DNA of 32,000 nucleotides, from NCBI GenBank assembly GCA_963677545.2, contig CAXXKH010000003.1:672563-704562 (forward strand). Direction: 5' to 3'. A program made the position numbers and the translations under genes. The stretch's first letter is position 1. The number at the start of each line of letters is the position of its first letter. Of this stretch, positions 2,375 to 26,351 are shown one piece after another. This DNA is from Desulfobacterales bacterium. Lineage in GTDB: Bacteria; Desulfobacterota; Desulfobacteria; Desulfobacterales; JAFDDL01. The notes beneath the pieces were generated by a model. It was not told the origin of the DNA. It was given only the letters and a program-made list of their open reading frames with translations, and made no database searches.

Positions 2375-2398
2375 AAATGGTAGTTTTTCTGCGTAAGT

Positions 2399-10218: not shown

Positions 10219-10304
10219 TCCATGTGCAAATAGGAATAGCCAACTATCGATGGAGTGATGATAACCAGCTTTACATTAAATTTAATACCTGATAGTTTTG
10301 TGTT

Positions 10305-10987: not shown

Positions 10988-11002
10988 AAACTGAAAAGGG
11001 TA

Positions 11003-11157: not shown

Positions 11158-11202
11158 GGGCTTAGAAAAACATTATTTTTCAAAAAAGACTGACGTTTTT
11201 TA

Positions 11203-11460: not shown

Positions 11461-11681
11461 GAGATTACCACATAAATATTTTCTATTCCGAAGAGGATGG
11501 TGGATACATTGCCGACATTCCGGATTTGAATGCTTGCTCTGCCTACGGTAATACCCCCGAAGAGGCGCTTTGCGAAGTTCAAAAAGCGAAAACGATTTGG
11601 CTGCAAACCGCTCGTGATAGTAAAAGACCGATCCCCCTTCCGAAATACAGACCTGTTATCTATCAAGCATCATGTGCTTAG
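11457..11681 (+). CDS. hicB: HicB-family antitoxin (short form)
   Basis: YHINIFYSEEDGGYIADIPDLNACSAYGNTPEEALCEVQKAKTIWL is the typical HicB N-terminal fold. Coupled to hicA. Confidence 0.75.
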   Translation: MRDYHINIFYSEEDGGYIADIPDLNACSAYGNTPEEALCEVQKAKTIWLQTARDSKRPIPLPKYRPVIYQASCA

Positions 11682-11758
11682 TGATATGACGATTTTTCGA
11701 TCGAGATCTCAAAGGGCTTTTTATGTCTGTCGTGTGAACTACCTTTTTTTATAAGAAT

Positions 11759-11817
11759 TGTTTACCGGCCACTCCGCCTCGACATCGGGACTACGCTAAA
11801 GGGTGCCAAGGGCCGCT
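11759..11817 (+). repeat. L-arm fragment of the modular repeat
   Basis: TGTTTACCGGCCACTCCGCCTCGACATCGGGACTACGCTAAAGGGTGCCAAGGGCCGC, compared with 12518..12575 TTTTTTACCGCCCACTACGCCCTGTCGGACTTCGTTCAAGGCCGCCAAGGACCGCC. Confidence 0.55.
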
Positions 11818-11984
11818 TAGATTGACAAAGGCTGGTTGCATAGGAAATATTTGCCTGATAGAAAGATAAAAGATAAATTGCATTCGAAACTACCGCGGAT
11901 TTGGGAATAGTAACTTTGAATTAATTGAGTATGGACATTCAGATTATTATTCTGTTCCATAACTATTGAAAGGTAAGTGAGAGC

Positions 11985-12305
11985 ATGATGTCAACTCAGG
12001 ACAAGAAAATCCTTGAACTTTTTACGGCACGAGTTCGAGACCTGTACAAGGACGCACGGGTTTGGGCCTATGGATCACGCGTACGGGGGGATGCAACCTG
12101 GGAGTCCGATTTTGATATTTTTATACTCTTGCCGAAAAAGGATGAATTTGCAGAGACAAAGATCAGGAATATCGGTTGGGAGATTGGCTTTGAACATGAA
12201 AGAGTTCTTACCACCGTGATAATGGAGCAAAATCAATTTGAGCATGGTCCCATGTCTGAGAGCACTCTTGTTAAAAATATCCTGCATGAAGGCCTGGAAG
12301 CGTGA
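11985..12305 (+). CDS. MNT-type nucleotidyltransferase antitoxin
   Basis: AYGSRVRGDATWESDFDIFILL (GS...D.D polymerase-beta-type NTase motif). 4-nt overlap with the HEPN gene. Confidence 0.75.
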   Translation: MMSTQDKKILELFTARVRDLYKDARVWAYGSRVRGDATWESDFDIFILLPKKDEFAETKIRNIGWEIGFEHERVLTTVIMEQNQFEHGPMSESTLVKNILHEGLEA

Positions 12306-12484
12306 CCTCTGAAAACATAAAAGCGTTGGTCCGGTATCGGCTTGAACAATCCGACGAGTCTATTAAAGCTGCGGTTTTGTTACTCCAAGAGGGCATCCCG
12401 AGACGCTCGGTCAACAACTCCTACTATGCTATGTTTTATGCCGTCATGGCGCTTCTTTGCGATCTTAAGCGAAGCGAGCGGTGA
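12302..12484 (+). pseudogene. HEPN-domain toxin gene truncated after ~51 codons by a repeat R arm
   Basis: The native part ...LLLQEGIPRRSVNNSYYAMFYAVMALL is a typical HEPN first half. The last codons CDLKRSER* are encoded by the repeat GGCGCTTCTTTGCGATCTTAAGCGAAGCGAGCGGTGA. The C-terminal half, where HEPN proteins carry the Rx4-6H motif, is absent. Confidence 0.65.
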
Positions 12485-12487
12485 GAT
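12448..12487 (+). repeat. R arm of the modular repeat (forms the 3' end of the truncated HEPN ORF)
   Basis: GGCGCTTCTTTGCGATCTTAAGCGAAGCGAGCGGTGAGA, compared with 15724..15762 GGCGCTTCTTTGCGATCTTGAGTGAAACGGGCGGTGAAA. Confidence 0.7.
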
Positions 12488-12517
12488 AGCAGTTATTTTT
12501 TGGCTTTTATGATATTG

Positions 12518-12665
12518 TTTTTTACCGCCCACTACGCCCTGTCGGACTTCGTTCAAGGCCGCCAAGGACCGCCAAGGCCGCCAAAGGCGGCTAAAAGCTG
12601 CAAGGTGCTATTGTATTTCGCTGGTCACGAAATACAATGAGAGCATTCCCTTCGGGAAGAGGGAG
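12518..12665 (+). repeat. Modular repeat, L arm through H2, right half missing
   Basis: TTTTTTACCGCCCAC...CTTCGTTCAAGGCCGCCAAGGACCGCCAAGGCCGCCAAAGGCGGCTAAAAGCTGCAAGG..ATTGTATTTCGCTGGTCACGAAATACAAT..GCATTCCCTTCGGGAAGAGGG. Confidence 0.7.
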
Positions 12666-12798
12666 CAGATATGTTTTTCTCAGCGGTTTGCTTGAATTGA
12701 TGGGCTTCGCACTGTATGTGGAAAATATTCTGTTGACAAAATGCCCTGTAGATTTACATTTGAAATGTACGAAAATATAACGAATTTATATTATTATA

Positions 12799-12956
12799 GT
12801 GAACGTTACAGAACTCAGGAAACATATATCTGCATATATGAATAAGGTAAAAGCAGGTGAAGAGGTGGAGATAACGTCTCGGGGCAAGGTTATTGCGAGG
12901 CTGGTTCCGGAGGTGGATGAAAGCCGCGCTGCACGCATGCGTCTGGCTTCTATTAG
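12799..12956 (+). pseudogene. Truncated orphan copy of the Phd/YefM-type antitoxin gene at 14387..14626
   Basis: 12713..12956 aligns with 14303..14553 (promoter, operator and the first ~53 codons: NVTELRKHISAYMNKVKAGEEVEITSRGKVIARLVPEVDESRAARMRLASI). The SD and ATG are lost and homology stops at 12956. No cognate PIN gene follows. Confidence 0.6.
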
Positions 12957-13000
12957 TCTCTATGGTGAGCACTCAAAAAGAAGTTGCTATTTATTAAAAA

Positions 13001-13390
13001 TCAAATTTTCCAACCACGTTGAACAACAATTTCGGGCAAGGGGTAATGTTTGGTGTTTAATGTATAAATCTTACCTCCGGTTTGTATGACGGTGGCAGCC
13101 AGAATCGCATCGTTCACGTCCATGCCATGGCTCGGATTCCAGCGACGATAAAGCTCTCCTGCCTTATCGATAATAGTCTGGTCGACCTGTTCGGTTTTAA
13201 ATTGCGATAAAAACAGCAAAGTGGCTTTTTCTTCAACCGGGCGCATAAAAAACACCACTTCGGCGCGCTGCATGGTACCGATCCAGAGTTCCATCTTTTC
13301 TCTGTCGCGCAGTTTTTTAAGTAAGTTGAGAGCGTTCCGTTCACCGCGCAAATGCCATATGAGAATATCCGAATCGATAAACGCTTTCAT
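13001..13390 (-). CDS. vapC: PIN-domain toxin (VapC-like)
   Basis: MKAFIDSDILIWHL...MDVNDAILAATVIQTGGKIYTLNTKHY shows the PIN acidic residues. 4-nt overlap with the upstream antitoxin gene. Confidence 0.75.
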   Translation of the reverse strand: MKAFIDSDILIWHLRGERNALNLLKKLRDREKMELWIGTMQRAEVVFFMRPVEEKATLLFLSQFKTEQVDQTIIDKAGELYRRWNPSHGMDVNDAILAATVIQTGGKIYTLNTKHYPLPEIVVQRGWKI

Positions 13391-13644
13391 CGCTTATATC
13401 TTTCCTGGGATATGCGCATTGTTGTCTTGATTCGTGTAATCGTATCGTCCGCGGATTCGTCACGTTGCCAGCTGCCAAACGTTTGGACCAAGAGATCCAG
13501 ATCTTTCTCCGAAGCGATTTTTTCCGCATAGGCCTGGACAGCGTTTTCGAGGACAGCTTTTTTTGATGTCCCCAGTTTTTGAGCCAGCATACCGATTTTC
13601 CGAATCACCGCTTCATCCATACGAGTTGACATTATTTTATCCAT
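13387..13644 (-). CDS. Antitoxin partner of the PIN toxin (RHH/VapB-like)
   Basis: Start moved from 13803 to ATG 13644, preceded by AGGAGG. The longer ORF N-terminus is repeat-encoded. MDKIMSTRMDEAVIRKIGMLAQKLGTSKKAVLENAVQAYAEK. Confidence 0.65.
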   Translation of the reverse strand: MDKIMSTRMDEAVIRKIGMLAQKLGTSKKAVLENAVQAYAEKIASEKDLDLLVQTFGSWQRDESADDTITRIKTTMRISQERYKR

Positions 13645-13672
13645 TTCGAACACCTCCTGTGTATATGTAAGA

Positions 13673-13701
13673 AAGATAACGTAAGATTGTTTAATTGTCA
13701 A
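13673..13701 (-). promoter_or_regulatory. Candidate sigma-70 promoter for the antitoxin-PIN operon
   Basis: On the minus strand: TTGACA (13701..13696), 17 nt, TATCTT (13678..13673), about 30 nt upstream of ATG 13644. Confidence 0.35.
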
Positions 13702-13728
13702 CGGATCATGGTTGAATTGAATGTTACA

Positions 13729-13808
13729 GCGCTTTTGGGATCCTCTCTGCGATCTTGAGCGAAGCCCTGTGCCCCTTGTGCCGGGGAGGCAGGCAGTGAG
13801 CATGCAGT
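13729..13808 (+). repeat. R arm of the modular repeat, long variant with extra GC hairpin
   Basis: TTTTGGGATCCTCTCTGCGATCTTGAGCGAAGCCCTGTGCCCCTTGTGCCGGGGAGGCAGGCAGTGAGCATGCAG, compared with 14137..14206. Confidence 0.6.
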
Positions 13809-13964
13809 AGCATTTAAGCCGTTGATGTTGATTTTATTTATGCGGTAAGATCGATGCCCTGACAAGGCGTTGACTATAGTCATTGACCATAGTACCAAAT
13901 GAATAACGCTTATTTGCGATTTGAAGGCATAAATATAGTTGTTTTAAGCCTTTGTGATAAGAAC

Positions 13965-14206
13965 TTTTTACCGCCCACTTCGTTCAAGACCGCCAAGAAC
14001 CGCCAAGAACAACAAGTGCACATTGTATTTCGCTGATCGCGAAAAACAATGGGTGCATTCCCTCCAGGAAGGTAGTGCATGCCGCAGGCATCAAATTTTT
14101 TCTTGGCCGAGATGTCTCCGGCAAACAAAAAGATCTTTTCTTGGCCTTCCTTCCCGACCTTGAGCGAAGCCCCGACGCCGGGGCAGGTAAGGCGGTGAGA
14201 ATGCAG
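13965..14206 (+). repeat. Complete ~240-bp copy of the modular repeat (L arm, H1-H4 hairpins, R arm); reference copy
   Basis: The L arm TTTTACCGCCCACTTCGTTCAAGACCGCCAAGAA is the inverted complement of the consensus R arm end (..TTCTTGGCGCTTCTTTGCGATCTTGAACGAAGTGGGCGGTGAAAA in other copies). Internal hairpins: ATTGTATTTCGC-TGATC-GCGAAAAACAAT, TTCCC-TCCA-GGAA, ATGCC-GCA-GGCAT and TTGGCCGAG-ATGTCT-CCGGCAAA. Confidence 0.75.
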
Positions 14207-14324
14207 TTTTTTGCTCGACCAAGCGGGTCAGGAAATTTATGGCTGTGAGGTTTGAAAGCGTTTTTGGGGGTATCCCGATTTGTCTGAAATGAGGGGCTTT
14301 ATAATGTAAATGGAGAAAATACTA

Positions 14325-14365
14325 TTGACAAAATGCCCTACAGATGTACATTTGAAATGTACATC
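14325..14365 (+). promoter_or_regulatory. Promoter plus perfect 23-bp palindromic operator of the phd-PIN operon
   Basis: TTGACA 14325..14330, 16 nt, TACATT 14347..14352. The palindrome GATGTACATTT-G-AAATGTACATC at 14343..14365 overlaps the -10. Confidence 0.55.
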
Positions 14366-14386
14366 TATAAAATCAAGGTGATTTAT

Positions 14387-14626
14387 ATGATTATAGTAAA
14401 TGTTACAGAGCTTAGAAAACATATACCTGCATATATGAACAAGGTGAAGGCCGGTGAAGAGGTGGCGATAACGTCTAGGGGCAAAGTTGTCGCAAGGTTG
14501 GTTCCGGAGGTAGATGAAAGCCGCGCTGCACGAATGCGCCTGGCTTCAATCAGAAAAGAGAGCTGGGTGGGGGATGTGATCACACCGACCGGTGAGCCGT
14601 GGGAGGCTGACCATGATTCTCCTTGA
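14387..14626 (+). CDS. Phd/YefM-type antitoxin
   Basis: Start moved to ATG 14387, preceded by AAGGTGA. MIIVNVTELRKHIPAYMNKVKAGEEVAITSRGKVVARLVPE is a typical Phd/YefM N-terminus. Overlaps the PIN gene start. Confidence 0.75.
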   Translation: MIIVNVTELRKHIPAYMNKVKAGEEVAITSRGKVVARLVPEVDESRAARMRLASIRKESWVGDVITPTGEPWEADHDSP

Positions 14627-15008
14627 CACCTGTGTCATGATATTCGATGCGCTTACGCCGGAAAAACTCAGTCAGAAGGCCTTCAAGGAACTGGAAAAAG
14701 GCAGACAATCAAATAACCTTGTCTGCAGCGATATTACACTATGGGAAATCGCTATGCTTGTCAGTAAAGAAAGACTGAAGCTTCCTATACCACTTCATGA
14801 TTTTCTGACCGATGTCATATTGGCCAACAGACTGCGGGTGCTTCCCATTGGCCCTGAAATTGCCGCTTTTTCAGCCTGCCACAGCGAATTTATTCATGGC
14901 GATCCAGCTGACAGAATTATCGCGGCAACCGCGTTGCACCACAATGCGGTTCTTCTAACCTGTGATACCAGACTGAGAAAAATAAAAAGCTTGAAAACGA
15001 TGTGGTGA
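14613..15008 (+). CDS. vapC: PIN-domain toxin (VapC-like)
   Basis: MILLDTCVMIFDAL...HGDPADRIIAATALHHNAVLLTCDTRL. ATG 14613 preferred over the upstream alternative start at 14592. Confidence 0.8.
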   Translation: MILLDTCVMIFDALTPEKLSQKAFKELEKGRQSNNLVCSDITLWEIAMLVSKERLKLPIPLHDFLTDVILANRLRVLPIGPEIAAFSACHSEFIHGDPADRIIAATALHHNAVLLTCDTRLRKIKSLKTMW

Positions 15009-15029
15009 TTGAATCGATCTTTTTTTTCA

Positions 15030-15190
15030 GCTCACTTCTCCCTATGGGATAAACTGAGATGCGGTATTGGTGAGAGCTGCAAAAAGCCCTGCCGGAGGCA
15101 TCGAAGTTTTTATTTGCCGAGTTGTCTTCGGCAAACAAAAAATCTTTCCTTCGCGTTTCTTTGCGATCTTGAACGAAGTGGGCGGTGAAA
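15030..15190 (+). repeat. Modular repeat copy lacking H1 (H3, H4 and R arm present)
   Basis: GCTGCAAAAAGCCCTGCCGGAGGCATCGAAGTTTTTATTTGCCGAGTTGTCTTCGGCAAACAAAAAATCTTTCCTTCGCGTTTCTTTGCGATCTTGAACGAAGTGGGCGGTGAAA. Confidence 0.7.
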
Positions 15191-15332
15191 TATTCAGTAT
15201 TTTTTTTGCTTTTCAGTGAAGTCCCTATCATGCATAGATACCTAAATAATTCTGCAAGGTTGTGGTATTTTTTATTTAATGATAAACTGATTTCTTAAGT
15301 CAGAATCCATTAAGGATATTGGCGAGATCGCG

Positions 15333-15653
15333 ATGAATTCGATAACTGAAAACCAGATCGGCAATATGGTGGTTGATGCTGCAATCCAAGTTCATAGAAC
15401 ACTTGGACCGGGACTGCTTGAAAGTGCATATGAAGTATGCCTTACTCATGAATTACGATCACGAGGTGTTACAATTCAAACTCAGGCCGAGTTGCCAATA
15501 ACTTATAAAAATGTCCGGTTGGATGCCGGTTACCGCTTGAATATTCTGATTGAAAATAAGGTTATTATTGAACTGAAGGCGGCTAAAAACTGCAAAAATC
15601 ATATTGCATTTCGCTGGTCACGAAATACAATAAGGTGCATTCCCTTCGGGTAG
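15333..15653 (+). pseudogene. GxxExxY-family (PD-(D/E)XK-like) gene truncated after ...IIELKA by a repeat copy
   Basis: GPGLLESAYEVCLTHELRSRGV...LPITYKNVRLDAGYRLNILIENKVIIELKA is the canonical first ~83 aa. From 15577 the ORF reads through repeat sequence (AKNCKNHIAFRWSRNTIRCIPFG*). The family C-terminus (..YL..G..LGLL.NF..) is absent. Confidence 0.65.
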
Positions 15654-15768
15654 GGAGCTTGCTGCAGGCATCAAGGTTTTTCTTTGCCGAGTCGTCCCCG
15701 GCAAACAAAAAATAGCTTTTCTTGGCGCTTCTTTGCGATCTTGAGTGAAACGGGCGGTGAAAATGCAG
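15577..15768 (+). repeat. Modular repeat copy, 5'-truncated inside the L-side GCCGCC-AAA-GGCGGC hairpin; H1-H4 and R arm intact
   Basis: AAGGCGGCTAAAAACTGCAAAAATCATATTGCATTTCGCTGGTCACGAAATACAAT...GCTGCAGGCATCAAGGTTTTTCTTTGCCGAGTCGTCCCCGGCAAACAAAAAATAGCTTTTCTTGGCGCTTCTTTGCGATCTTGAGTGAAACGGGCGGTGAAAATGCAG. Confidence 0.75.
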
Positions 15769-15804
15769 TTGAATGTTCTTCAATACCCTGAGCGGTGAGA
15801 CAAT

Positions 15805-17841
15805 ATGGAAAAAAAAGATCTGATAAAGAAACTAAAGGAACATGGTATCCATACCAAGGCGCACTTTTATACGGAAGCCTTTTCCCGGAACATCGGTCTG
15901 TTAACCACTGCTGACCAGGCTAAGCTCTCCGAGGCCACCGTCGCCATCCCCGGTATGGGCGGGGTAGGCGGGGCACACCTGATGGCCATGATTCGGATGG
16001 GGGTGGGAAAGTTTCACATTTCAGATTTCGATACCTTTGAAGTGGCCAATTTTAACCGGCAATACGGCGCCACCGTCCCGAGTCTGGGTCAGAATAAACT
16101 GGATACGATGGTTGCACAGGCATTGTCCGTAAATCCCTATGCAGAAATCAAGACTTTCCCCCAGGGCATTTCCGCCGAAAATCTCGATGAATTCCTGGAT
16201 GGAGTGGATGTCGTTATCGACAGTCTCGACTATTTCGAATTCGATATTCGAAGAATGCTGTTCAATCGGGCAAGTGAAAGAGGCGTGTATGTGGTTACCG
16301 CCGGCCCGATCGGCTTCAGTTCCGCCATGCTGGTTTTCTCCCCGCACGAAGGCATGGGGTTTGACGAGTATTTCAATATCGTCCGCGATATGACGCCACA
16401 GGATCATTACCTCTCCTATGCTATGGGGCTGGCCCCGAGGTCCACCCAGATCAAGTACATGGATCTGTCCCGAGTGGATTTGACCGCCAAGGCCGGCCCA
16501 TCATCAATTGCCGCTGTCCAGCTTTGTGCCGGTATGGTAGCTTCTGAGGCCATGCGGATTATTTTAGGAAAGGGCAGAATAAAACCGGCGCCTCATTATT
16601 TCCAATTCGATTTCTATCGGCAGATTTTTCGAAAAGGAAAACTTAGAGGCGGAAACCGGCATCCCATTCAGAAGCTGAAAAAAAGTATTGTAAACAAGCT
16701 TCTCGCGAGAAACGCTAAGATTATTAAACCGGAGGTGCCGGAAATACCCGCGTTAGGTAATATAACAGAGGACCTGCCTGAGCCTGTTCTTGAATATATC
16801 TTAAAGGCTGGAATTCAGGCGCCTTCCGGCGACAATGTTCAGCCCTGGAAGTTCAAAGTCAGGAACAACAGCATCGATCTTTACCTTGACAAAGCCGTTG
16901 ACAACTCGTTTTTCAATGTGCAACAGATCGCGTCCATTATTTCGTGTGGTGCGGTTATCGAAAACCTCAAAATCGCGGCAACCCTGTTCGGCCTTGATTC
17001 GAATATTCATTTACTCCCGGAAGGCGGGGGAAGTGACCATATGGCCTCGGTTACCTTCACCGACGGCGAAATTGAAAGCGATCCCCTCTCCCCATTTATT
17101 TGGGAGCGTTGCACCAACCGGAAATTCTTCAATAAAGAAGTCATTCCCGAGTCAAATCTTGAAACACTTAGTGAATCTGTTTCGATGTTTCCCGGCGTCA
17201 GCCTCCACCTGATCACCGGTCGTGAGCGGCTGAAATCGGTTGCCGACATGGTGTATCTGGCAGACCGTATTCGAACCGAGCACCGCCCCATGCATGAGCA
17301 TTTAAATAAAATGATTCGCTTCACGAAAAAAGAGGCGATTGACGCGCGTGATGGTTTCCCCCTGAAAAACCTGGAGGCCGGTATTGCCGGAGAGATTTTC
17401 TTGAAAGCCACCCGTTCTTGGGCGGCCATGACCGTGGCGAATTATTTGGGGGTTGGCCGGCTTGTGGCCATGCATGCCAAAATGGGAATACTCAGTTCAT
17501 CCGGAGTGGGACTTGTTACGGTAAAAGGCACCGGAACAAAGGACCTTTTGATAGGCGGCCAGGCCCTTGAACGGACCTGGCTTAACCTTGCCAAGCTTGG
17601 TATTTCTTTTCAACCCATGGCGGCTGTGACTCTATTCTGGATGCGTTGGCTTCTGTCCGGGGAGAATGATTTTCTGCCGAAGCATCGCCCGCTTTTGAAC
17701 CGCGTGTGGGATGCTTACAAAAGGCTCTTTCCTGAAGTTGATTTTGAAGCGGATGGGCATGTCCTGTTATTTCGGTTCGGGGTTGCGAAACCGATTCGGC
17801 AGAGAACTATACGAAAATATCATCACAGTTTTTACCGGTGA
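15805..17841 (+). CDS. ThiF/E1-like adenylyltransferase domain fused to tandem nitroreductase-like domains (Rv1355c/MoeY-type architecture)
   Basis: N-terminus FSRNIGLLTTADQAKLSEATVAIPGMGGVGGAHLMAMIRMGVGKFHISDFDTFEVANFNRQ (E1 Rossmann, Gly-rich ATP loop). From about residue 330, ILKAGIQAPSGDNVQPWKFKV (nitroreductase signature). 678 aa. Confidence 0.7.
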   Translation: MEKKDLIKKLKEHGIHTKAHFYTEAFSRNIGLLTTADQAKLSEATVAIPGMGGVGGAHLMAMIRMGVGKFHISDFDTFEVANFNRQYGATVPSLGQNKLDTMVAQALSVNPYAEIKTFPQGISAENLDEFLDGVDVVIDSLDYFEFDIRRMLFNRASERGVYVVTAGPIGFSSAMLVFSPHEGMGFDEYFNIVRDMTPQDHYLSYAMGLAPRSTQIKYMDLSRVDLTAKAGPSSIAAVQLCAGMVASEAMRIILGKGRIKPAPHYFQFDFYRQIFRKGKLRGGNRHPIQKLKKSIVNKLLARNAKIIKPEVPEIPALGNITEDLPEPVLEYILKAGIQAPSGDNVQPWKFKVRNNSIDLYLDKAVDNSFFNVQQIASIISCGAVIENLKIAATLFGLDSNIHLLPEGGGSDHMASVTFTDGEIESDPLSPFIWERCTNRKFFNKEVIPESNLETLSESVSMFPGVSLHLITGRERLKSVADMVYLADRIRTEHRPMHEHLNKMIRFTKKEAIDARDGFPLKNLEAGIAGEIFLKATRSWAAMTVANYLGVGRLVAMHAKMGILSSSGVGLVTVKGTGTKDLLIGGQALERTWLNLAKLGISFQPMAAVTLFWMRWLLSGENDFLPKHRPLLNRVWDAYKRLFPEVDFEADGHVLLFRFGVAKPIRQRTIRKYHHSFYR

Positions 17842-17902
17842 ACTGCTGCTCCTGAAAAAAATCAGTCCAAAGTCTGGATAAACGCATGGTGTGGAGTTTA
17901 AC

Positions 17903-18910
17903 ATGAATATTAACAAGATCTTAGAGCGTGTTTCCGAATATATGTGGCCTGTGATTCGTTTTGTTATAAAGAAAAAAAGACGGTGTAAGAATTGCATTCT
18001 TTCAGAAGCATATCTCCCGTTGAAGAACGGCTTATGTGAAAAATGTTCCAATGAAATTAATTGTTTTGAAGAGAAGCATTTTGAGGCATCGGAGGATATC
18101 AAGCACAAATTTCATGAAAAGATAACCTCTTATCAGGAAACCGATAAACGTTATCATTGTCTACTGCTTCTAAGCGGGGGGAAAGACAGCGCCTATATCC
18201 TGTATCGCATGAAATTGGAATATCCCGGCTTAAGGATACTCTGCGTTTTTGTAGACAATGGTTTTTCGAGCCCTGTAGCGATATCGAACGCTACTTATGT
18301 CGCAGATAAATTCAAAACCGATTTTATGATTGTCAGCTCTTATGTTGATGAATTTTCTAAAGTGTTTCGTCAGGCCTTTTTAGATCTGAAAGGAAGAGGA
18401 AGTTATGGTGTTGTGGACAAGGCTGACGGAGATTTTATATTTGAAGTTGGGCAAAAAGTGGCCCGAGATATGCGGATTCCAATGATACTCGGCGGTCTCT
18501 CATGGGTCCAGCTGCAAAAAATATTTGGTATCGATGGTTTCGAACTTGAACAGGAGATTCCGGTAATTCATCCGCTTGCTGTCTGGCGGGTCAATGAGCA
18601 GGGTATCCGTGATGAGGTTCAGGCGCGGAATCTGTTGCCCCGGGGAAATGACAACCCCGTGGTAACCAATAACAAGCTTATCCTGACCATGTGCGCATTG
18701 GACGTAAAGAACAACGGTTATTGCAGTTTCGAGCCCGAATTTGCCCAGTTGGTACGTGAGGGGAAAGCAGACAGGAAAACCTGGTTGTATAATTTTGAAT
18801 TGCTGGAATTTGCCACGATAAATGGTTTTCTGGATAAGGAAATCTCAGATTCCCTGGAGAAACTTCATCTGACAATGGATGATGTCATAAAATGTGAGAA
18901 AGTCAAATAA
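17903..18910 (+). CDS. PP-loop ATP pyrophosphatase with N-terminal CxxC-x13-CxxC zinc ribbon (N-acetyl sugar amidotransferase-like or TtuA-like)
   Basis: ATG 17903 is preferred (GGAG 6 nt upstream). CKNCILSEAYLPLKNGLCEKC, then HCLLLLSGGKDSAYILYRM (SGGxDS PP-loop). Confidence 0.65.
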   Translation: MNINKILERVSEYMWPVIRFVIKKKRRCKNCILSEAYLPLKNGLCEKCSNEINCFEEKHFEASEDIKHKFHEKITSYQETDKRYHCLLLLSGGKDSAYILYRMKLEYPGLRILCVFVDNGFSSPVAISNATYVADKFKTDFMIVSSYVDEFSKVFRQAFLDLKGRGSYGVVDKADGDFIFEVGQKVARDMRIPMILGGLSWVQLQKIFGIDGFELEQEIPVIHPLAVWRVNEQGIRDEVQARNLLPRGNDNPVVTNNKLILTMCALDVKNNGYCSFEPEFAQLVREGKADRKTWLYNFELLEFATINGFLDKEISDSLEKLHLTMDDVIKCEKVK

Positions 18911-18923
18911 GAGAGGAGATTGT

Positions 18924-19895
18924 ATGAAAACTGCCATTATCACAGGCGCGACAGGATGTGTCGGGCGAAATATCATTGAAAATTTAGATCCTTCAGAATG
19001 GGATATTGTGATTTTTCATAGAAGATCATCTGATTTGTCTCGTCTCAAAGATTGCAGAGTCCGATTCCAGGAAGTCGATTTATACGATATAAATTCTGTC
19101 CGGCACGCCATGCCTGGCGATGCTGATGTCATTTTTCATGTCGCTGGCAACACTTCTCACTGGTCATCAGAGGCAGCACAACAATGGAAAGACAATGTCC
19201 TTGTCACTAGAAATCTTGTTCAAGTTGCAGTGGAAAAAAAAGTAACGCGTTTTATATTCACTTCGACGGGTGCAACTCGTAAGTATCTGTATTATAATGA
19301 AAAAGAGTGTAAGCGTATTAAGTCGGGCTATAAACGTACCAAACGGTTGGCTGAAATTGAGTTGATCAAGGGAATTGAGATGGGATTGGACGCCGTCATT
19401 CTTCAACCCACCATTGTTGTCGGCGCCTACGATTACAATAGCTATTCACAAATTTTTTCAGGATTGAAAAGCGGAAAAATCAATACGGTTTTTCCCGGTA
19501 AGATTGCTTTCTGCCACGCCGATGATGTCGCCAAGGCTCATATACAGGCTTATGAAAAAGGAAGATGCGGGGAATATTATGTCCTGGGAGGCACCTATGC
19601 AACCTGGCTTGATTTTTTTGTTCGGATTGCCAATGTCATCGGGGTGAAACCGATAAAAAAGGCCCCTTCCAGATTCGTCATAAAAATATTAGCCTGTTTG
19701 GAATTTGTCCGAGCCAAGTTTGCCGGACAAAAACCCCTGCTCACTTTTGATTTGTTGGATCTGGTTGTAGACGATCCGGATTTGAGCTACTCGGAAAAAA
19801 GCCGATCATTTGAAGAGCTTGGCTATGAGTCCGCTTCCATGGATCAAATGATCATTGATTGTTACAATTGGATGAAGGAAGAAGGACGGTTGTAA
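18924..19895 (+). CDS. Extended SDR, NAD-dependent epimerase/dehydratase/reductase family
   Basis: ATG 18924 is preceded by GAGGAG. MKTAIITGATGCVGRNI (Rossmann GxxGxxG), SGYKRTK (YxxxK), FTSTGAT. Confidence 0.75.
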   Translation: MKTAIITGATGCVGRNIIENLDPSEWDIVIFHRRSSDLSRLKDCRVRFQEVDLYDINSVRHAMPGDADVIFHVAGNTSHWSSEAAQQWKDNVLVTRNLVQVAVEKKVTRFIFTSTGATRKYLYYNEKECKRIKSGYKRTKRLAEIELIKGIEMGLDAVILQPTIVVGAYDYNSYSQIFSGLKSGKINTVFPGKIAFCHADDVAKAHIQAYEKGRCGEYYVLGGTYATWLDFFVRIANVIGVKPIKKAPSRFVIKILACLEFVRAKFAGQKPLLTFDLLDLVVDDPDLSYSEKSRSFEELGYESASMDQMIIDCYNWMKEEGRL

Positions 19896-19976: not shown

Positions 19977-20009
19977 AAAAAAACAAAGGGCAGCTAAGAT
20001 AGCTGCCCT
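19977..20009 (-). terminator. Rho-independent terminator of the PEP-CTERM gene; the hairpin is shared with the convergent SDR operon
   Basis: Perfect 9-bp stem AGGGCAGCT / AGCTGCCCT (19987..19995 and 20001..20009) with a 5-nt loop. On the minus strand it is followed by TTGTTTTTTT. Confidence 0.7.
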
Positions 20010-20038
20010 CTGCATAATCCATTCAGAAAGAAGTTTTA

Positions 20039-20971
20039 TTATTTACGAAACTTTTTTCGGCTAATCCCTGCCAGACCAATAAGTCCCATGCCCAAAAGGA
20101 TCATAGTGCCTGGTTCGGGAACTGCATCAAATACAACGTCAATGCCGTTATCGCTGAAACTGAGCAGGATTGTATTCTCGGGCGAGTCATTATTATCATT
20201 TCCATCATCAGAAAAGCCTGCGATACCGACACCATGAGCGCTACCATCATTATAAGTAAACAGCAAACCATTAGCGACTAATTCTTCCAAAGGCATGGCT
20301 GCTGAACCGGCGTCAAACCAGAAATCGTCGTCCTGGTTGATGTCGGCAAGTGAGAACGCAACGCTATATAATGCTGTCCCGGCCGGAACTGCTTCAGGCC
20401 AAACGCTCGGCCCGACCAAAGATGGAGCAGCATACTCAAAGGCAAAATCAGCGGCTAATGTATCACCAGCAGTATATGTGTGGCTATCATCCATATCGAT
20501 ATACATTGATGCGCTGCCATAAGCCATTTGTGTATAATAAGTATCGGTTTTAATACTTTCATAGGTGAGCCTTGTCGTATCACCGTCCCCACCATTGTTA
20601 TATCCAAAGATGTAACCGCCTAAAGAGACGTCAATCATCAAATCTTGGCTACCGCTGGGATAGCTCGGATAAACTGCATTACCGATAGCATCGACACCAT
20701 TGACAACTTTCATGGAAAAGACCTCGGTAAAGGTGTCACCATCGTTTAAAATACCGTCATCGCCAAGATCTTGTACGATATAGGTAGTTCCAGTTCCTCC
20801 ACCTACTGAGTATTGTGCATAGCCTTCTGTATCAAATCCCCAAATTTCCATGGGGTTGTGCGTGGCACCGGTTGCATCTGCATCAAAAATGACTGAATAA
20901 GGGGCCGCCATAGCAGTACCGCTTATTAAAAAGATTGACATTAAAATTGCTAAAAATGCGATTTTTTTCAT
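20039..20971 (-). CDS. PEP-CTERM sorting-domain secreted protein (exosortase substrate)
   Basis: Signal peptide MKKIAFLAILMSIFLISGTAMA. C-terminus VPEPGTMILLGMGLIGLAGISRKKFRK (PEP motif, TM helix, basic tail). Strong SD AAGGAG. Confidence 0.85.
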   Translation of the reverse strand: MKKIAFLAILMSIFLISGTAMAAPYSVIFDADATGATHNPMEIWGFDTEGYAQYSVGGGTGTTYIVQDLGDDGILNDGDTFTEVFSMKVVNGVDAIGNAVYPSYPSGSQDLMIDVSLGGYIFGYNNGGDGDTTRLTYESIKTDTYYTQMAYGSASMYIDMDDSHTYTAGDTLAADFAFEYAAPSLVGPSVWPEAVPAGTALYSVAFSLADINQDDDFWFDAGSAAMPLEELVANGLLFTYNDGSAHGVGIAGFSDDGNDNNDSPENTILLSFSDNGIDVVFDAVPEPGTMILLGMGLIGLAGISRKKFRK

Positions 20972-21460: not shown

Positions 21461-22177
21461 TCATACATATCGTGCCGCCCAGAGAGATGCCTGGAGACGG
21501 TTTTTAACGTTAATTTTTTTGTATATGTTGTAGATGTGGGTTTTGACCGTGTGAAGACTGATGCAGAATTCATCAGCAATCTGCTGATTTCCGATTCCAC
21601 TGGCAATCCTTATCAAAATTTGTCGTTCTCGTTCCGTCAGGCAGGAGGCCAGGTCAGTACTTATTCTGTTATTAGTAATGTGTGTATGCCCGTTTGATAA
21701 ACAGTGGGAAAGCGTCTTTCTGCTAAACCACAATTCACCCCGCAGGATTGGAGGAATAGCTTTCGGCAAAATTTTAAACGAATCTTTTTGATAAAATAAA
21801 CCATGAACACCGTGTTCTATGGCCTTGTTTTCAAGGCCTGCCTCTGTGTGAACGTTATAAAACGTAATAAAACACTGGCTGTTTATCTCTGCTCTACTGA
21901 GGTTGTATGATCGCCAGGGATCAATCTTTTTCTCACCAAGACAATCCACCAACAGCAGATGTGTCATACCGGGTTTCAGCGCTGTTCTAAATGATGAATC
22001 CATCAATTTATGCTGTTTGCATTGCAAACCCAGGTTCTCGGCTAAAAAGGAGGTGAGTAATTCATTCTGTAGAATATTCGGCCCGATCACGTGGATCAGT
22101 ACGTCTGTGAAATCAGGTTTGTCGTTTACATCATCGGTGGTTTTAAGATTCATGGTGACCTCTTTGTATTGGCTCAT
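21461..22177 (-). CDS. LuxR/CsgD-VpsT-type transcription regulator (degenerate receiver-like N-domain + LuxR HTH)
   Basis: C-terminus LTERERQILIRIASGIGNQQIADEFCISLHTVKTHIYNIYKKINVKNRLQASLWA. The N-domain has LLLVD but lacks the usual N-terminal acidic pair (IHVIGPN). Confidence 0.75.
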   Translation of the reverse strand: MSQYKEVTMNLKTTDDVNDKPDFTDVLIHVIGPNILQNELLTSFLAENLGLQCKQHKLMDSSFRTALKPGMTHLLLVDCLGEKKIDPWRSYNLSRAEINSQCFITFYNVHTEAGLENKAIEHGVHGLFYQKDSFKILPKAIPPILRGELWFSRKTLSHCLSNGHTHITNNRISTDLASCLTERERQILIRIASGIGNQQIADEFCISLHTVKTHIYNIYKKINVKNRLQASLWAARYV

Positions 22178-24062: not shown

Positions 24063-26351
24063 TTAATTGTTCCCCTCAATCTCCTGCAAAACTCGCTTAG
24101 CATCATCAGCGCCATCAAATTCCGGGTTGAGGGAAAGCGCCTGCTCAAGAGCCGATTTAGCCTTGGATATTTCTCCCTTTTTATACTGCGCAAGACCCAT
24201 ATGATAAAGGATTATCGGTTGCTCCGGGCTTTTTTCAAGAGCATCGGAAAACTCACTAATGGCACTGTCATAGAGACCTTTCTTATAATAAACCCATCCA
24301 AGTGTATCAGCATTGCTGACATCGTCTGGTCGTTTTTCTTTTGACATTCTCGCCAGTTCCAATGCTTCATTAAGGTTTTGACCTTTTTCCGCTAATATGA
24401 AGGCCAAATTGTTGGCTGCCGTGCTGAAATCGGGGTCGATTTCAAGTGCTTTCCGATAGTGAGCCTCTGACAAGTCTGTTTCTTTCTTCATATCGAAAAG
24501 CACGCCCAAAAGCATGTGAGGTGCTGCTATGTTCGGATTTTTTTCAATTAACGCCTCATATTCGGAAATGGCCTGATCCGTTTTCTCAGCGCTGCCGTAG
24601 ACATTTGCTATGGCATAGTAGGGGGGGGCATACATATTATTTAATTGCTGTGATTCCTTATATGCGGCGATTGCTTCGTCCATAAGGCCCTGCTGTTGCT
24701 TTATTTGCCCTTGGAGGTATCTTACAACCGCCTGGGCGGAGGGCTCACTATCGAAGGTTTTTAGTTGATCTTCGCAAAGCCCCAGAGCAATGTCCAGATT
24801 TTTCATGGAAGCCTGGGTGACGACAAGCTGGGTAAATGCATCTAACAGTTTCGGATTGATACTAAGTGCCTTTTCGAACTGACCAATTGCTCGTTCGGGT
24901 TGACGAGATGCCAGGTAATAAAGGCCCATTCGGTAATAGCCAGTAGGATTTTCAGGTTCGAGTTCTATAAGCCGCTCATAGTGAGTCTTGGTTTCATCGG
25001 CATTTTTCTGCCTGAAATAAATATTTCCAAGTAAAAAGGATGCCTGGTAAGAGTTGGGTTTAAGACGTAGAACCTCTTCACATTCCTTCACTGCCAAGTC
25101 ATAGCTCGTTTCCCTGTAATATATCTCAGCCAAAAGAAGTCTGGCCTTTGGGAAATTGGGGGAGAGATTCACAGCCTTGGCAATATCGGGTTTGGCCATG
25201 CGAATATCGCCTTTCAGATAGTGGGTAAGTCCTATGAAATAATGGACCCGTGAGGAATCCGGTTCTTCTTGGAGCAATTGGTTAAATATAGAAATCGCTT
25301 CATCTGTTTTCCCCTTAAGTAGTAAAAATTCACCTTTCAGCATGCGAGTTGGTGCGTATCGGGGGCGTTCCGTAAGAATTTCATTAATCAACCGTTCACA
25401 ATCATTGAGGTTTCTTGTTTTCAAATGAAGCTCTGCCAAGGAATTTTTTATCGCGACATTTTCTGGCTGAAGCGATAGGGCTTTTTCATACATGGATAGC
25501 GCTTCTTCAACCTTATTGGAACTCATATAAAAACCGGCGAGGACAAGGTAAGGCTGAGTGTTGTTAGGGGCCAGAGACAAAGCCTTCTGGTATGCGGTTT
25601 CAGCCTGTTCCGGCTCCTGAAGTTTAAAATAAAAATTTCCTAATATCATATGAAGGGCAGAAGACTCTGGACTTTCTGCAATTGCGGCAAGGAGAGTTTC
25701 TTCAGCGTCATCGAAATGCTTGATGCCGATGTACAGAGAGCTGAGGACCAACCGAGCTTTGGTTCCCTTGGGATCGATGTCAATGGCGCGCTTGAGAATT
25801 CGTTCGGTTTCCAGGGAGTTTCCCTGCAGGCCTCGAACGCGGGCAAGGCCGAGATAGGCGTTAATGTTTTTGGAGTCGATGCTCATGATTCTTTCGTAGA
25901 GGGCTGCTGCCTCGTACAGATTTTTTTTCTGCTCTCGGACCGAAGCTACCAGGAAAAGCGCCTCGATATTATTGGGTGATGCCTCCAGAACAGCATCCAG
26001 CTTTTCCATGCCGCTGTCTGTTTGTTTCGCCAGAATCAGAAAGTTGGCAATTTTTAGCTTGGCCTCGATATTGTCAGGATCAAGTTGCTCTACCTTGATA
26101 TAGGCGCGATAGGAATCCTGAGTGTTTCCAAGCTTCAAGAAAGCATCCCCTAAAAGCATATAAGCCTCGACAAATTCGGGATCGATCTGAATGGCGTTAC
26201 GAAATTCGAGTTCCGCACTTTTATAGTCGCCCTTTTCAATGTATACTTTTCCTTTTTCTATATGAGCGGTTTTCTTTTCCTCATCGCTCGCACAACCAAT
26301 TACAGACAGGATCAGAATAATTGCCAGAATAACAGCTTTTGCCCGATTCAT
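24063..26351 (-). CDS. PEP-CTERM-system TPR-repeat lipoprotein (PrsT-like), paralog 1
   Basis: Start moved to ATG 26351 (GGAGGAAACACA ATG). Lipoprotein signal MNRAKAVILAIILILSVIGC. About 20 TPR units along the whole length. Confidence 0.75.
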   Translation of the reverse strand: MNRAKAVILAIILILSVIGCASDEEKKTAHIEKGKVYIEKGDYKSAELEFRNAIQIDPEFVEAYMLLGDAFLKLGNTQDSYRAYIKVEQLDPDNIEAKLKIANFLILAKQTDSGMEKLDAVLEASPNNIEALFLVASVREQKKNLYEAAALYERIMSIDSKNINAYLGLARVRGLQGNSLETERILKRAIDIDPKGTKARLVLSSLYIGIKHFDDAEETLLAAIAESPESSALHMILGNFYFKLQEPEQAETAYQKALSLAPNNTQPYLVLAGFYMSSNKVEEALSMYEKALSLQPENVAIKNSLAELHLKTRNLNDCERLINEILTERPRYAPTRMLKGEFLLLKGKTDEAISIFNQLLQEEPDSSRVHYFIGLTHYLKGDIRMAKPDIAKAVNLSPNFPKARLLLAEIYYRETSYDLAVKECEEVLRLKPNSYQASFLLGNIYFRQKNADETKTHYERLIELEPENPTGYYRMGLYYLASRQPERAIGQFEKALSINPKLLDAFTQLVVTQASMKNLDIALGLCEDQLKTFDSEPSAQAVVRYLQGQIKQQQGLMDEAIAAYKESQQLNNMYAPPYYAIANVYGSAEKTDQAISEYEALIEKNPNIAAPHMLLGVLFDMKKETDLSEAHYRKALEIDPDFSTAANNLAFILAEKGQNLNEALELARMSKEKRPDDVSNADTLGWVYYKKGLYDSAISEFSDALEKSPEQPIILYHMGLAQYKKGEISKAKSALEQALSLNPEFDGADDAKRVLQEIEGNN

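Follow-up and report, generated by a model that had tools for sequence, protein, structure and literature searches.

A PP-loop ATPase and SDR gene pair beside an oxazolone-synthetase-like gene in a Desulfobacterales bacterium: a possible tailoring module for lipo-amino acids

The closest described systems to the locus reported here are the pathways that make N-acyl oxazolones. Oxazolone synthetases of the OxzB/TrzS type were characterised between 2021 and 2025, and OxzB, TyzB/TyzC and TrzS (= Rv1355c) convert N-acyl amino acids into N-acyl oxazolones (bioRxiv 10.1101/2020.06.11.147165; PMC10404671; PMC12856293). The first-pass annotation of our DNA had described the Rv1355c-type fusion of ThiF and nitroreductase domains as lacking an assigned function, a statement that these papers overtake. 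A further set of clusters is built around N-acyl amino acid synthases in an EPS-rich region and contains ThiF, nitroreductase and PEP-CTERM protein genes (PMC12479983, PMC7293339). Two groups of PP-loop enzymes are also pertinent. N-acetyl-sugar amidotransferases (NASAT) act by activating an amide carbonyl (PMC10607449), while CongE and OzmP, N-type ATP pyrophosphatases with an SGGKDS motif, are proposed oxazole cyclodehydratases, as which Itm15 is also cited; the proposed role of all three is to activate the amide oxygen of an acylamino-carbonyl compound, which then becomes an oxazole (PMC4504003, PMC8706051).

The window, i.e., the whole 32-kb stretch of DNA that was analysed, is an EPS/PEP-CTERM region. 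Within it, gene 1 (15805-17841, + strand, 678 aa), gene 2 (17903-18910, +) and gene 3 (18924-19895, +) follow one another. Genes 2 and 3 have alternative starts (ORFs from 17891 or 17903 and from 18894 or 18924); with ATG 17903 and ATG 18924 as starts, the intergenic distances come to exactly 61 and 13 nt, and SD-like purine-rich stretches (GGTGAG, GGTGTGGAG and GAGAGGAGA) precede the three starts. Inspection of ORFs and starts thus agreed with the first-pass description of three same-strand genes, each with its SD, and all the motifs quoted there were found: GMGGVGG, DFD..NFNRQ, APSGDNVQPWKF, SGGKDS and GATGCVG, together with C28xxC31-x13-C45xxC48 in gene 2 and Y136xxxK140 in gene 3. All three are genuine genes and form one unit. 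A dispersed repeat of ~190 nt is present in at least five copies within 10.0-15.8 kb, and the operon does begin right after one of them, the last copy ending near 15765, ~40 nt 5' of gene 1. At the other end, a 14-bp intrinsic-terminator-like hairpin (19983-20013, - strand) lies between gene 3 and a convergent PEP-CTERM gene. The hairpin had been described as shared by the two; it exists, but because its T-run is found on the - strand only, it looks like a terminator belonging to the PEP-CTERM gene, and the sharing is not clear.

Gene 1 consists of a ThiF-like ATP-dependent cyclase domain (residues ~20-306) and an Acg-like flavin-dependent oxidase (FDO) domain (residues ~320-676). It matched ThiF (PF00899, 1.3e-44) and Nitroreductase (PF00881, 1.3e-07) in Pfam, and in NCBIfam it matched PRK14851 (1014 bits, under the curated cut-off of 1170), PRK08223 (380 bits, above the cut-off of 266), the Rv1355c family (5e-82; 276 bits, under the curated cut-off of 476) and the Acg family (9e-46). 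R85, K98 and D142 of the ThiF ATP site are conserved. Judged by sequence, gene 1 has the OxzB/TrzS (Rv1355c) "oxazolone synthetase" architecture, that of enzymes making oxazolone lipids out of fatty-acyl amino acids. The proposal of an adenylation/redox operon linked to the PEP-CTERM region holds. The predicted substrate is a small molecule, an N-acyl amino acid, and therefore the missing carrier protein is expected rather than puzzling. A search of both strands of the whole 32-kb window for GG-ending ORFs of 30-130 aa found none, in keeping with the earlier remark that no ThiS/MoaD-like ORF is present. As a counterpoint to the oxazolone reading, the FDO domains characterised so far use O2, and Desulfobacterales, from which the best-named relatives of gene 1 come, are anaerobes.

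A precursor-supplying gene, which the first-pass annotation had not seen, is found at 8732-9925 (- strand) and encodes a FeeM-type N-acyl amino acid synthase with a cyclic-nucleotide-binding domain (FeeM 2.1e-21, cNMP_binding 3.3e-11; weak match to the TIGR03694 exosortase-associated acyltransferase model). FeeM genes adjoin gene 1 homologues in four related loci (L082, L084, L085 and L086), and in L084, the closest relative, the synthase orthologue, 59% identical, lies 379 bp from the gene 1 orthologue and is divergent to it. By homology, the synthase would be the equivalent of OxzA/TyzA/TrzA and would supply the substrate of gene 1. In the window, the synthase gene is 5.9 kb from gene 1 and on the opposite strand. 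The two are separated by a block of toxin-antitoxin cassettes with the ~190-nt repeats between them (9928-15795), where L084 has ~360 bp instead; gene content, repeats and the L084 comparison indicate that this block is an insertion that split the synthase gene from gene 1.

Other genes in the window have counterparts in related loci. The 5' part of an MMPL/RND-type transporter gene, recognised by tblastx synteny, occupies 1-1321 (-) and runs past the window start; it is 63% identical to the L084 MMPL gene (tblastx), the L084 and L085 genes both match Pfam MMPL, and its product is a candidate lipid exporter. Its syntenic partner in L084 and L085 encodes an AMIN plus DUF1302-like outer-membrane protein (2399-4384, -; AMIN 1.3e-12, DUF1302 2.3e-10), and a LolA-like/DUF1329 periplasmic lipid-carrier-like protein (4756-5541, -; LolA_like 2.4e-66) is syntenic in the same two loci. 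On the far side of the operon are the convergent PEP-CTERM (PepA-like) protein gene (20039-20971, -; PEP-CTERM 3.5e-07, floc_PepA 8e-12) and a CsgD/LuxR-family transcription regulator gene (21461-22177, -; GerE 1.5e-18, CsgD 3.7e-29). In L013, L084 and L085, too, the module has PEP-CTERM genes at its flank, and LuxR-type regulators recur beside related clusters (L027, L082; cluster c9 in 8 loci).

Gene 2 encodes a Zn-ribbon PP-loop ATP pyrophosphatase that had no match in the Pfam profile search. Against TIGR03573 it scored 4.8e-19 (69 bits, with a family cut-off of 203) over the N-terminal half of the model only, and its AF2 model (pLDDT 89.8) retrieved 8WEX as top Foldseek match (E 5e-9, TM 0.53). 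C28, C31, G43, C45, C48 and S91GGKDS96 are invariant, and the C-terminal half has its own family-specific invariant motif, GY[CS]SFEPEF..R..K; the family comprises 171 representative clusters at E<=1e-30. By tetracysteine motif, PP-loop and predicted fold, gene 2 is a divergent relative of the N-acetyl-sugar amidotransferases, as the first-pass annotation had suggested. None of the NCBIfam tRNA-modification models was matched. A TtuA-type thiolase is not supported either, as gene 2 has no Fe-S cysteine triad.

Since an E1-like protein and a PP-loop protein are encoded side by side, a superficially fitting reading is that the locus serves sulfur relay or thio-modification like TtuC/TtuA or ThiF/ThiI, gene 1 being the E1 and gene 2 the thiolase. 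TtuA and NcsA are indeed found, among the weaker matches by fold and profile. We consider this analogy, which the first-pass annotation had drawn, extremely improbable and unsupported: a GG-ended small ORF is absent from the 32 kb; the three cysteines of gene 1 are scattered, and it has neither a CxxC nor a rhodanese domain; gene 2 is without the three-Cys Fe-S site because only its four Zn-ribbon cysteines are invariant; and no NCBIfam tRNA-thiolase model was matched at E<=0.01.

Gene 3 encodes an extended SDR of the HpnA/aldehyde-flavonoid-reductase-like group (Epimerase PF01370 1.7e-28, NAD_binding_4 1.1e-12; 160 bits to the HpnA model, under that model's cut-off), with 3wj7, 2x4g and cinnamoyl-CoA reductase as best PDB matches. 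TGxTGxxG, R33, S114, Y136 and K140 are conserved across 27 homologues; the predicted enzyme is an HpnA-like SDR with an intact Ser-Tyr-Lys triad and the NADPH-type Arg kept, and is probably NADPH-dependent.

The neighbourhood of the trio, on whose conservation the first-pass proposal had depended, is conserved: genes 2 and 3 (the PPL-SDR pair) are adjacent in 27 genome loci, in varied gene orders and several phyla. ThiF and/or FDO genes lie within 7 kb in 11 of these loci and FeeM in 10, at least one of them being present in 14. The remaining 13 have no synthase or ThiF/FDO gene in the fetched flanks (L083 is amid chemotaxis genes), and the pair might accordingly act more broadly or on another substrate. 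It is also absent from L084-L086, the three closest gene 1 contexts examined; it is an add-on, and its adjacency to gene 1 here could be recent. A mobile PPL-SDR cassette with an unrelated substrate, inserted 3' of gene 1 where cassettes are visibly accumulating (as the toxin-antitoxin insertion illustrates), would account for these observations. Nevertheless, we regard such incidental adjacency as very unlikely, given that 14 of 27 loci independently co-localise with ThiF/FDO and/or FeeM in differing orders and phyla, that no terminator is found in the 61-nt gap between genes 1 and 2, and that L082 has a co-directional five-gene string (FeeM, ThiF-FDO, GT1, PPL, SDR).

The modified sugar for the exopolysaccharide that the first-pass annotation had entertained is possible, e.g., an acetamidino or differently modified nucleotide sugar for exopolysaccharide or glycolipid made by genes 2 and 3, whose only tie to gene 1 would be the common operon. 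By profile and by fold, gene 2 is best matched by N-acetyl-sugar amidotransferases, the superfamily of gene 3 is that of the NDP-sugar epimerases/dehydratases, at least six loci have a GT1 or GT2 gene next to the pair, and the setting is an EPS/PEP-CTERM region. We nevertheless hold this to be distinctly unlikely, the context favouring a lipo-amino-acid role more. The gene 2 match to the sugar enzymes is far under the cut-off and confined to the N-terminal half, the C-terminal half having its own motif. Neither a glutamine-amidotransferase nor a HisH/HisF-like partner is among the called genes of the window, as the first-pass annotation had stated for the HisH/HisF-type ammonia donor. FeeM, and not sugar-nucleotide genes, leads the Pfam families of the 128 neighbours counted around close homologues of gene 2. 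Finally, the fusion partners of gene-2-family domains are acyl-reductase, AMP-ligase and NRPS domains rather than sugar enzymes: the domain follows NAD_binding_4 acyl-reductase domains (P0255, P0264, P0265, P0288 and the L037 ORF) and ends an NRPS of architecture A-T-C-A-T-R-PPL (P0276, L087). These fusions put the domain at the step following the release, by reduction, of an N-acylated amino aldehyde. The HpnA-like SDR of gene 3 differs in type from the NAD_binding_4 reductases in the fusions.

We slightly favour the reading that the three genes form the later half of a lipo-amino-acid pathway, in which genes 2 and 3 tailor its scaffold. The first step, suggested by homology and synteny, would be N-acylation of an amino acid by the FeeM-type synthase. 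By analogy with characterised homologues, the ThiF domain would adenylate the carboxylate, ring closure through the amide oxygen would then yield a 5(4H)-oxazolone, and the flavin domain of gene 1 would desaturate the alpha,beta bond, giving an N-acyl oxazolone or dehydro-amino acid like the products of OxzB, TyzBC and TrzS. Neighbourhoods and fusions suggest that genes 2 and 3, a widespread and unstudied enzyme pair, probably reshape the oxazolone lipid further as a two-enzyme module for which this acyl-amino-acid scaffold is also the substrate. Reduction by the SDR would take the activated carboxyl (oxazolone C5 here; acyl-AMP or thioester elsewhere) down to an aldehyde, and adenylation of the amide carbonyl oxygen by the NASAT-like PP-loop enzyme would permit ring closure or amidine formation, yielding a 2-alkyl azole-type or amidine-type lipid. 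Context suggests that export is probably by the MMPL/DUF1302/LolA-like genes at 1-5541, and that the product is tied functionally to the nearby PEP-CTERM/exosortase and LuxR-type genes.

Alternatively, genes 2 and 3 may process a carboxylate with no ring formed, the PP-loop enzyme adenylating the acyl-amino-acid carboxylate in parallel with NAD synthetase, asparagine synthetase and QueC, and SDR reduction or ammonia attack then giving an N-acyl amino aldehyde, alcohol or amide. Carboxylate adenylation is common among PP-loop enzymes, fused gene 2 homologues have weak QueC and NAD-synthase Pfam matches, the SDR resembles cinnamoyl-CoA and thioester reductases, and the PPL-SDR adjacency is tight. 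We find this alternative rather unlikely. Another domain already activates the carboxylate in A-T-R-PPL and AMP-ligase/R-PPL proteins, which would make a second activator redundant, and in this operon the ThiF domain would already do so; moreover, NASAT, the nearest fold and motif relative, activates an amide rather than a carboxylate (PMC10607449).

Compared with OxzAB of Pseudoalteromonas rubra, TyzACB and TrzAS (Rv1356c-Rv1355c), the nearest known pathways, gene 1 shares the ThiF-then-FDO fusion of OxzB and TrzS, the pairing with a FeeM/LuxI-fold N-acyltransferase gene and a small-molecule substrate without carrier protein, and an MMPL gene is near, as mmpL9 adjoins tyz (PMC10404671). Unlike them, gene 1 falls in a separate PRK14851-like subfamily under the Rv1355c equivalog cut-off, the acyltransferase includes a cNMP-binding domain and its gene has been moved 5.9 kb away, and the host lineage is probably anaerobic while known oxidase domains need O2. 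The synthase clusters of PMC12479983 and PMC7293339 likewise bring together synthase, ThiF, nitroreductase and PEP-CTERM genes, but their ThiF and nitroreductase genes are separate, tailoring is by methyltransferases, and a PP-loop/SDR pair is not reported there. With NASAT (WbuX, WbpG, LpNASAT, PDB 8WEX; TIGR03573), gene 2 has in common CxxCxn[GN]xCxxC, the SGGKDS PP-loop and the fold (PMC10607449), and likely the logic of ATP-dependent amide-carbonyl activation; it differs in its C-terminal half, in having no ammonia-donor partner and in its lipid/NRPS rather than O-antigen genomic partners. Its likeness to CongE, OzmP and Itm15 would be one of chemistry, proposed for gene 2 on an N-acyl amino aldehyde, and those enzymes act on PKS-NRPS-bound N-formylglycine-derived intermediates, not free lipo-amino acids. 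Gene-2-family domains directly follow the R domains of NRPS/CAR reductive release (A-T-R, NAD_binding_4), to which gene 3 has weaker similarity; the operon instead has a free HpnA-like SDR and no carrier domain, and activation would come from the ThiF domain or gene 2 itself. The oxazolone step is already known; what is new is the PP-loop and SDR pair added to it, which is in no described oxazolone cluster.

The operon at 15805-19895 is an oxazolone-type cluster joined to an uncharacterised, widely distributed PP-loop/SDR pair with a putative tailoring role. Its three ORFs lie as the first-pass annotation had described them, i.e., a fusion of ThiF and flavin-dependent oxidase (FDO) domains (gene 1, 15805-17841, plus strand), a Zn-ribbon PP-loop protein (gene 2, 17903-18910, plus strand) and an SDR (gene 3, 18924-19895, plus strand), with gaps of 61 and 13 nt, ATG starts at 17903 and 18924, and a purine-rich SD-like stretch before each of the three starts. 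Every motif quoted for these genes was found, and no terminator-like sites were found between them. The operon does begin just after a repeat copy, as the last copy of a ~190-nt dispersed repeat ends about 40 nt before gene 1. At the other end, a GC-rich hairpin with 14 bp (19983-20013) separates gene 3 from the PEP-CTERM gene that converges on it; the hairpin is not clearly shared by the two as had been proposed, since only the minus strand has a T-run, which makes it mainly the terminator of the PEP-CTERM gene. An Rfam search of the window gave no matches, and no structured RNA or riboswitch was found upstream of the operon. A metagenome-assembled contig of 7.36 Mb (L001) matches the window at 98-100% protein identity.

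Gene 1 has a ThiF domain (PF00899, 1.3e-44, residues 27-280) and a nitroreductase domain (PF00881, 1.3e-07) in Pfam searches. Among NCBIfam models, its ThiF part passes PRK08223 (380 bits, cut-off 266), while the full-length PRK14851 (1014.5 bits, cut-off 1170), the Rv1355c family NF005901 (residues 228-675, 5e-82, 276 bits, cut-off 476) and the Acg family of FMN oxidoreductases NF047509 (residues 332-608, 8.7e-46, 156.8 bits, cut-off 199) all score below their cut-offs. Because gene 1 falls under the NF005901 and PRK14851 cut-offs, it is, by these scores, a homologue in a different subfamily from the Rv1355c family. The Acg structure 2YMV is among its matches, and the placement of a C-terminal monomeric Acg-like FDO of the nitroreductase superfamily after the ThiF domain is that of the OxzB/TrzS type. 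In an alignment, R85, K98 and D142 of gene 1 correspond to R70, K83 and D127 of E. coli ThiF, i.e., the ATP site is intact, and the Asp equivalent to D142 is essential in TrzS (PMC12856293). Its best-named relatives are from Desulfobacterales.

The Rv1355c-type architecture had been said to have no assigned function, which is out of date. In P. rubra, the acyltransferase OxzA makes N-acyl tyrosine or phenylalanine, which serves as substrate for the ATP-dependent oxazolone synthetase OxzB (bioRxiv 10.1101/2020.06.11.147165), the M. tuberculosis proteins TyzA, TyzB and TyzC carry out the same oxazolone chemistry as separate proteins (PMC10404671), and Rv1355c itself, under the name TrzS, takes the N-acyl tryptophan made by TrzA through cyclisation and then desaturation (PMC12856293). 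Oxazolones are destroyed by acid and by methanol (PMC12856293). We consider it likely, from domain order and active-site residues, that gene 1 is an OxzB/TrzS-type oxazolone synthetase homologue, predicted to cyclise an N-acyl amino acid with ATP and to desaturate it through its flavin domain. A role as a sulfur-carrier E1 of the ThiF/MoeB/TtuC kind was rejected. Cysteines occur only at positions 241, 381 and 436, neither a CxxC nor a rhodanese domain is present, the ThiF and MoeB equivalog models score far under their cut-offs, and, as the first-pass annotation had noted for carrier genes, a search of the whole window turned up no GG-ended ORF of 30-130 aa. On the oxazolone synthetase reading, the missing protein carrier is what the OxzB/TrzS enzyme class predicts. 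Known FDO domains use O2, and this sits awkwardly with a host that is probably anaerobic. An anti-phage E1/E2-type defence role, an idea drawn from the toxin-antitoxin neighbours, was also set aside, as PADLOC gave only generic E1-domain matches for gene 1 and none for genes 2 and 3.

The operon had also been thought to have no visible precursor gene; this does not hold, since a FeeM-family N-acyl amino acid synthase with a cyclic-nucleotide-binding domain is encoded as one ORF at 8732-9925 on the minus strand. In L084, the closest relative of gene 1 with genomic context, the gene 1 orthologue (68% identity) lies 379 bp from a divergently transcribed synthase orthologue (59%), with the same MMPL, DUF1302-like and LolA-like genes upstream as in the window and a PEP-CTERM gene downstream. 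FeeM genes also adjoin gene 1 homologues in L082 (a Burkholderiales MAG), L085 and L086 (D. autotrophicum HRM2). In the window the two genes are 5.9 kb apart, and the interval 9928-15795 holds toxin-antitoxin cassettes (TumE-like, HicAB, an MNT-type nucleotidyltransferase, two Phd/PIN pairs and PDDEXK_3) along with at least five copies of the dispersed repeat, spread over 10.0-15.8 kb. L084 has only ~360 bp in place of this block, which is thus an insertion that split an oxzA/oxzB-like pair. The repeat separates the cassettes, carries internal hairpins and matches no Rfam family, and the block can be likened to a cassette array. L084 also encodes a stand-alone paralogue of the oxidase half of gene 1 (13174-14097, 66% identity); it lies downstream of the gene 1 orthologue at a distance of ~1.1 kb, with an AbiEii-type toxin-antitoxin pair in between.

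Gene 2 had been viewed as a Zn-ribbon PP-loop relative of the N-acetyl-sugar amidotransferases (NASATs), and this is borne out by its cysteine motif, its PP-loop and its best fold match, but not by a full-length profile match or by the family cut-off. No Pfam match was retrieved with gene 2, and its top NCBIfam model, TIGR03573, reached 69 bits against a cut-off of 203.2 and covered only model positions 3-170 of 344, the N-terminal half. Its cysteines nevertheless form the exact NASAT signature, CxxCxn[GN]xCxxC, which has been shown to bind zinc in LpNASAT (PMC10607449), and its PP-loop has the SGGxDS motif of NASATs. Across 16 aligned family members C28, C31, G43, C45, C48 and S91GGKDS96 are invariant, as is a family-specific C-terminal block (GY[CS]SFEPEF...R285..K288..W294). 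The AlphaFold2 model (pLDDT 89.8) has LpNASAT (8WEX) as its best PDB neighbour in Foldseek, over the full length with E 5e-9 but a TM of only 0.53, followed by LarE, TtuA, NcsA, TilS and GMP synthetase; PDB profile matches span the PP-loop region only.

The presence of TtuA and NcsA among these neighbours recalls the suggestion of a TtuC/TtuA-type sulfur relay, which did not survive closer inspection. TtuA/NcsA-type tRNA thiolases have three catalytic-domain Fe-S cysteines and a second Zn finger; in gene 2 no cysteines are invariant other than the four of the N-terminal Zn ribbon, and C274 alternates with Ser. With no conserved three-Cys Fe-S site, a TtuA-type thiolase is excluded, and the relay lacks a GG-ended ORF as well. 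No NCBIfam tRNA-thiolase model, nor any other tRNA-modification model, matched gene 2, which agrees with it not being a housekeeping tRNA-modifying enzyme. In glycan loci NASATs have a HisH/HisF-like ammonia-donor partner (WbuY/WbuZ), and neither the genes called near the trio nor the most frequent neighbour families include such a Pfam family.

The gene 2 family comprises 171 representative clusters (50% identity) at E<=1e-30 and 1353 at E<=1e-10, and a genome scan with it returned 78 loci. Nearly all close homologues (at least 44% identity) are followed directly by a gene 3 homologue, and in a second branch the gene 3 homologue comes directly before the PP-loop gene; the two arrangements add up to 27 loci, from Burkholderiales, other Pseudomonadota, Planctomycetota, Bdellovibrionota and Acidimicrobiia, with varying gene order. 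Within 7 kb of the pair, ThiF and/or FDO genes occur in 11 of the 27, FeeM in 10, at least one of the three in 14 and a GT1 glycosyltransferase in six, which leaves 13 without visible synthase or OxzB genes. FeeM is the commonest Pfam family in 128 neighbours of close gene 2 homologues. In L082, FeeM, ThiF-FDO, GT1, PP-loop and SDR genes run in the same direction behind a LuxR-type regulator and a hybrid kinase, and in L013 a PEP-CTERM gene is directly upstream of the PP-loop/SDR pair and divergent from FDO-ThiF. Genes 2 and 3 are absent from L084-L086, the three closest gene 1 contexts examined, while L035 (labelled archaeal), which falls outside the 27, has PP-loop, ThiF and FDO genes and no gene 3 homologue. 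The expected conservation of the trio thus stands for the pair but not for gene 1 and the synthase as obligatory members: the constant core is the PP-loop/SDR pair, and gene 1 and the synthase are frequent partners.

Another branch of the gene 2 family has the order FeeM, PP-loop, AMP-ligase, PP-loop in 14 loci, including the isolate Desulfatitalea alkaliphila. The cultured strain M08but of that species carries a FeeM, PP-loop, AMP-ligase operon (L027, 5547-14598), flanked by a LuxR-type response regulator and a MASE11/PAS hybrid histidine kinase, and offers a tractable organism for the family. A distant branch (Accumulibacter, Propionivibrio, Bdellovibrio and others; L047, L051-L053, L055-L057, L059, L060, L062, L064 and L072) combines a FAD_binding_4 oxidase, an RRM-like protein, the PP-loop protein and two FtsX-type permeases. 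There, the small RRM_1-like protein always precedes the PP-loop protein and is sometimes fused to it (P0267), which places an RNA-recognition-motif fold inside a lipid-type cluster.

The PP-loop domain is also found behind NAD_binding_4 acyl/thioester-reductase (R) domains in five independent proteins of ~780 aa, fused to an AMP-binding ligase (P0256), and as the last domain of an NRPS with the order A-T-C-A-T-R-PP-loop (P0276; L087, 1977-8922). Apparent SDR-PP-loop fusions in L040 and L043 were not real, being two genes in different frames; the fusions counted after these were dropped are an L037 ORF, P0255, P0264, P0265, P0288 and P0276. The A domains of the L087 contig look frameshifted. 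The ending of this NRPS is the clearest hint as to the substrate of the gene 2 family: the predicted release product of its R domain is an N-acylated alpha-amino aldehyde, and the PP-loop domain comes next. Since the carboxylate is already activated, by the A/T domains in the NRPS and by the ThiF domain in the operon, a carboxylate-adenylating PP-loop domain would be redundant, and a NASAT-like attack on the amide carbonyl appears to fit better than carboxylate adenylation.

Gene 3 is an extended SDR whose top model is HpnA (TIGR03466, 160.4 bits, cut-off 367.65), and by its score it is assigned to the same SDR subgroup as HpnA, but not as a family member. It also matches SdmB, OleD, thioester-reductase and NAD_binding_4 models, with 3wj7, 2x4g and cinnamoyl-CoA reductases as best PDB matches; nevertheless, it is not of the NAD_binding_4 type found in the gene 2 family fusions. 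TGxTGxxG, R33, S114, Y136 and K140 are kept across 27 homologues, and these residues are consistent with an active carbonyl or acyl reductase, probably NADPH-dependent.

Based on homology and synteny, we propose that the synthase makes an N-acyl amino acid, which gene 1 would convert to an oxazolone or dehydro-acyl amino acid. Gene 3 may then reduce the activated C5 carbonyl to the aldehyde level, and gene 2 may adenylate the amide oxygen, so that an oxazole ring closes or, if ammonia takes part, an amidine or imidazole forms; the MMPL, DUF1302 and LolA-like genes could export the product. We lean towards the view that genes 2 and 3 work on the lipo-amino-acid scaffold that gene 1 handles, and hold the specific azole chemistry for them to be rather doubtful. 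More speculative still is the idea that the PP-loop/SDR pair and its R-PP-loop and A-T-R-PP-loop relatives form an unrecognised, widespread module, in which N-acyl amino acids or oxazolones pass via the aldehyde level to 2-alkyl oxazole- or imidazole/amidine-type lipids and the NASAT-like PP-loop protein serves as a cyclodehydratase/amidotransferase on a lipid amide and not a sugar amide. If this were true, PEP-CTERM/exosortase loci might have in these lipids their long-sought small-molecule partner or signal. A TOMM/YcaO-type azole RiPP pathway was rejected, as the window has no YcaO or RiPP precursor; a YcaO-TPR gene in L086 (21353-22046), ~9 kb from the FeeM/ThiF-FDO pair and absent from the other contexts, is probably unrelated to that pair. 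CongE and OzmP are PP-loop proteins with a proposed role as cyclodehydratases that form oxazoles by activating an amide oxygen, and Itm15 is cited as another (PMC4504003, PMC8706051); gene 2 is likened to them by the SGGKDS motif and the proposed chemistry (PMC4504003).

Two tandem PrsT-like XrtA/PEP-CTERM TPR lipoprotein genes (24063-29142, minus strand), followed by a TIGR03790-family gene (29459-30868, minus strand; 317 bits), confirm that the window sits within an exosortase-system region. The wider setting holds these two TPR proteins, a chain-length determinant, a PepA-like PEP-CTERM protein and a CsgD/LuxR regulator. A 668-aa ORF at 5676-7682 (minus strand), absent from L084, has two parts, a polysaccharide chain-length determinant of the PEP-CTERM type (Wzz/TIGR03007, residues 30-447) and the catalytic domain of a tyrosine recombinase (residues 482-632); an integration event may have fused them.

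Taken at face value, ThiF plus PP-loop is an annotation trap here, as the combination is not a sulfur relay, and the label "ThiF family adenylyltransferase" masks a known lipid-biosynthetic function. Oxazolone lipids were discovered only in 2021-2025, and this locus places a putative oxazolone synthetase gene, predicted to be co-transcribed with a conserved PP-loop/SDR pair, inside a PEP-CTERM region. The R-PP-loop fusions and the NRPS ending in a PP-loop domain lead to a testable hypothesis, in which a new family of tailoring enzymes activates amides at the expense of ATP. A tie between N-acyl amino acid synthases and PEP-CTERM/exosortase loci has stood without explanation since 2011 (Craig et al. 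2011, as relayed by PMC7293339), and the PEP-CTERM setting of the window agrees with two published observations.
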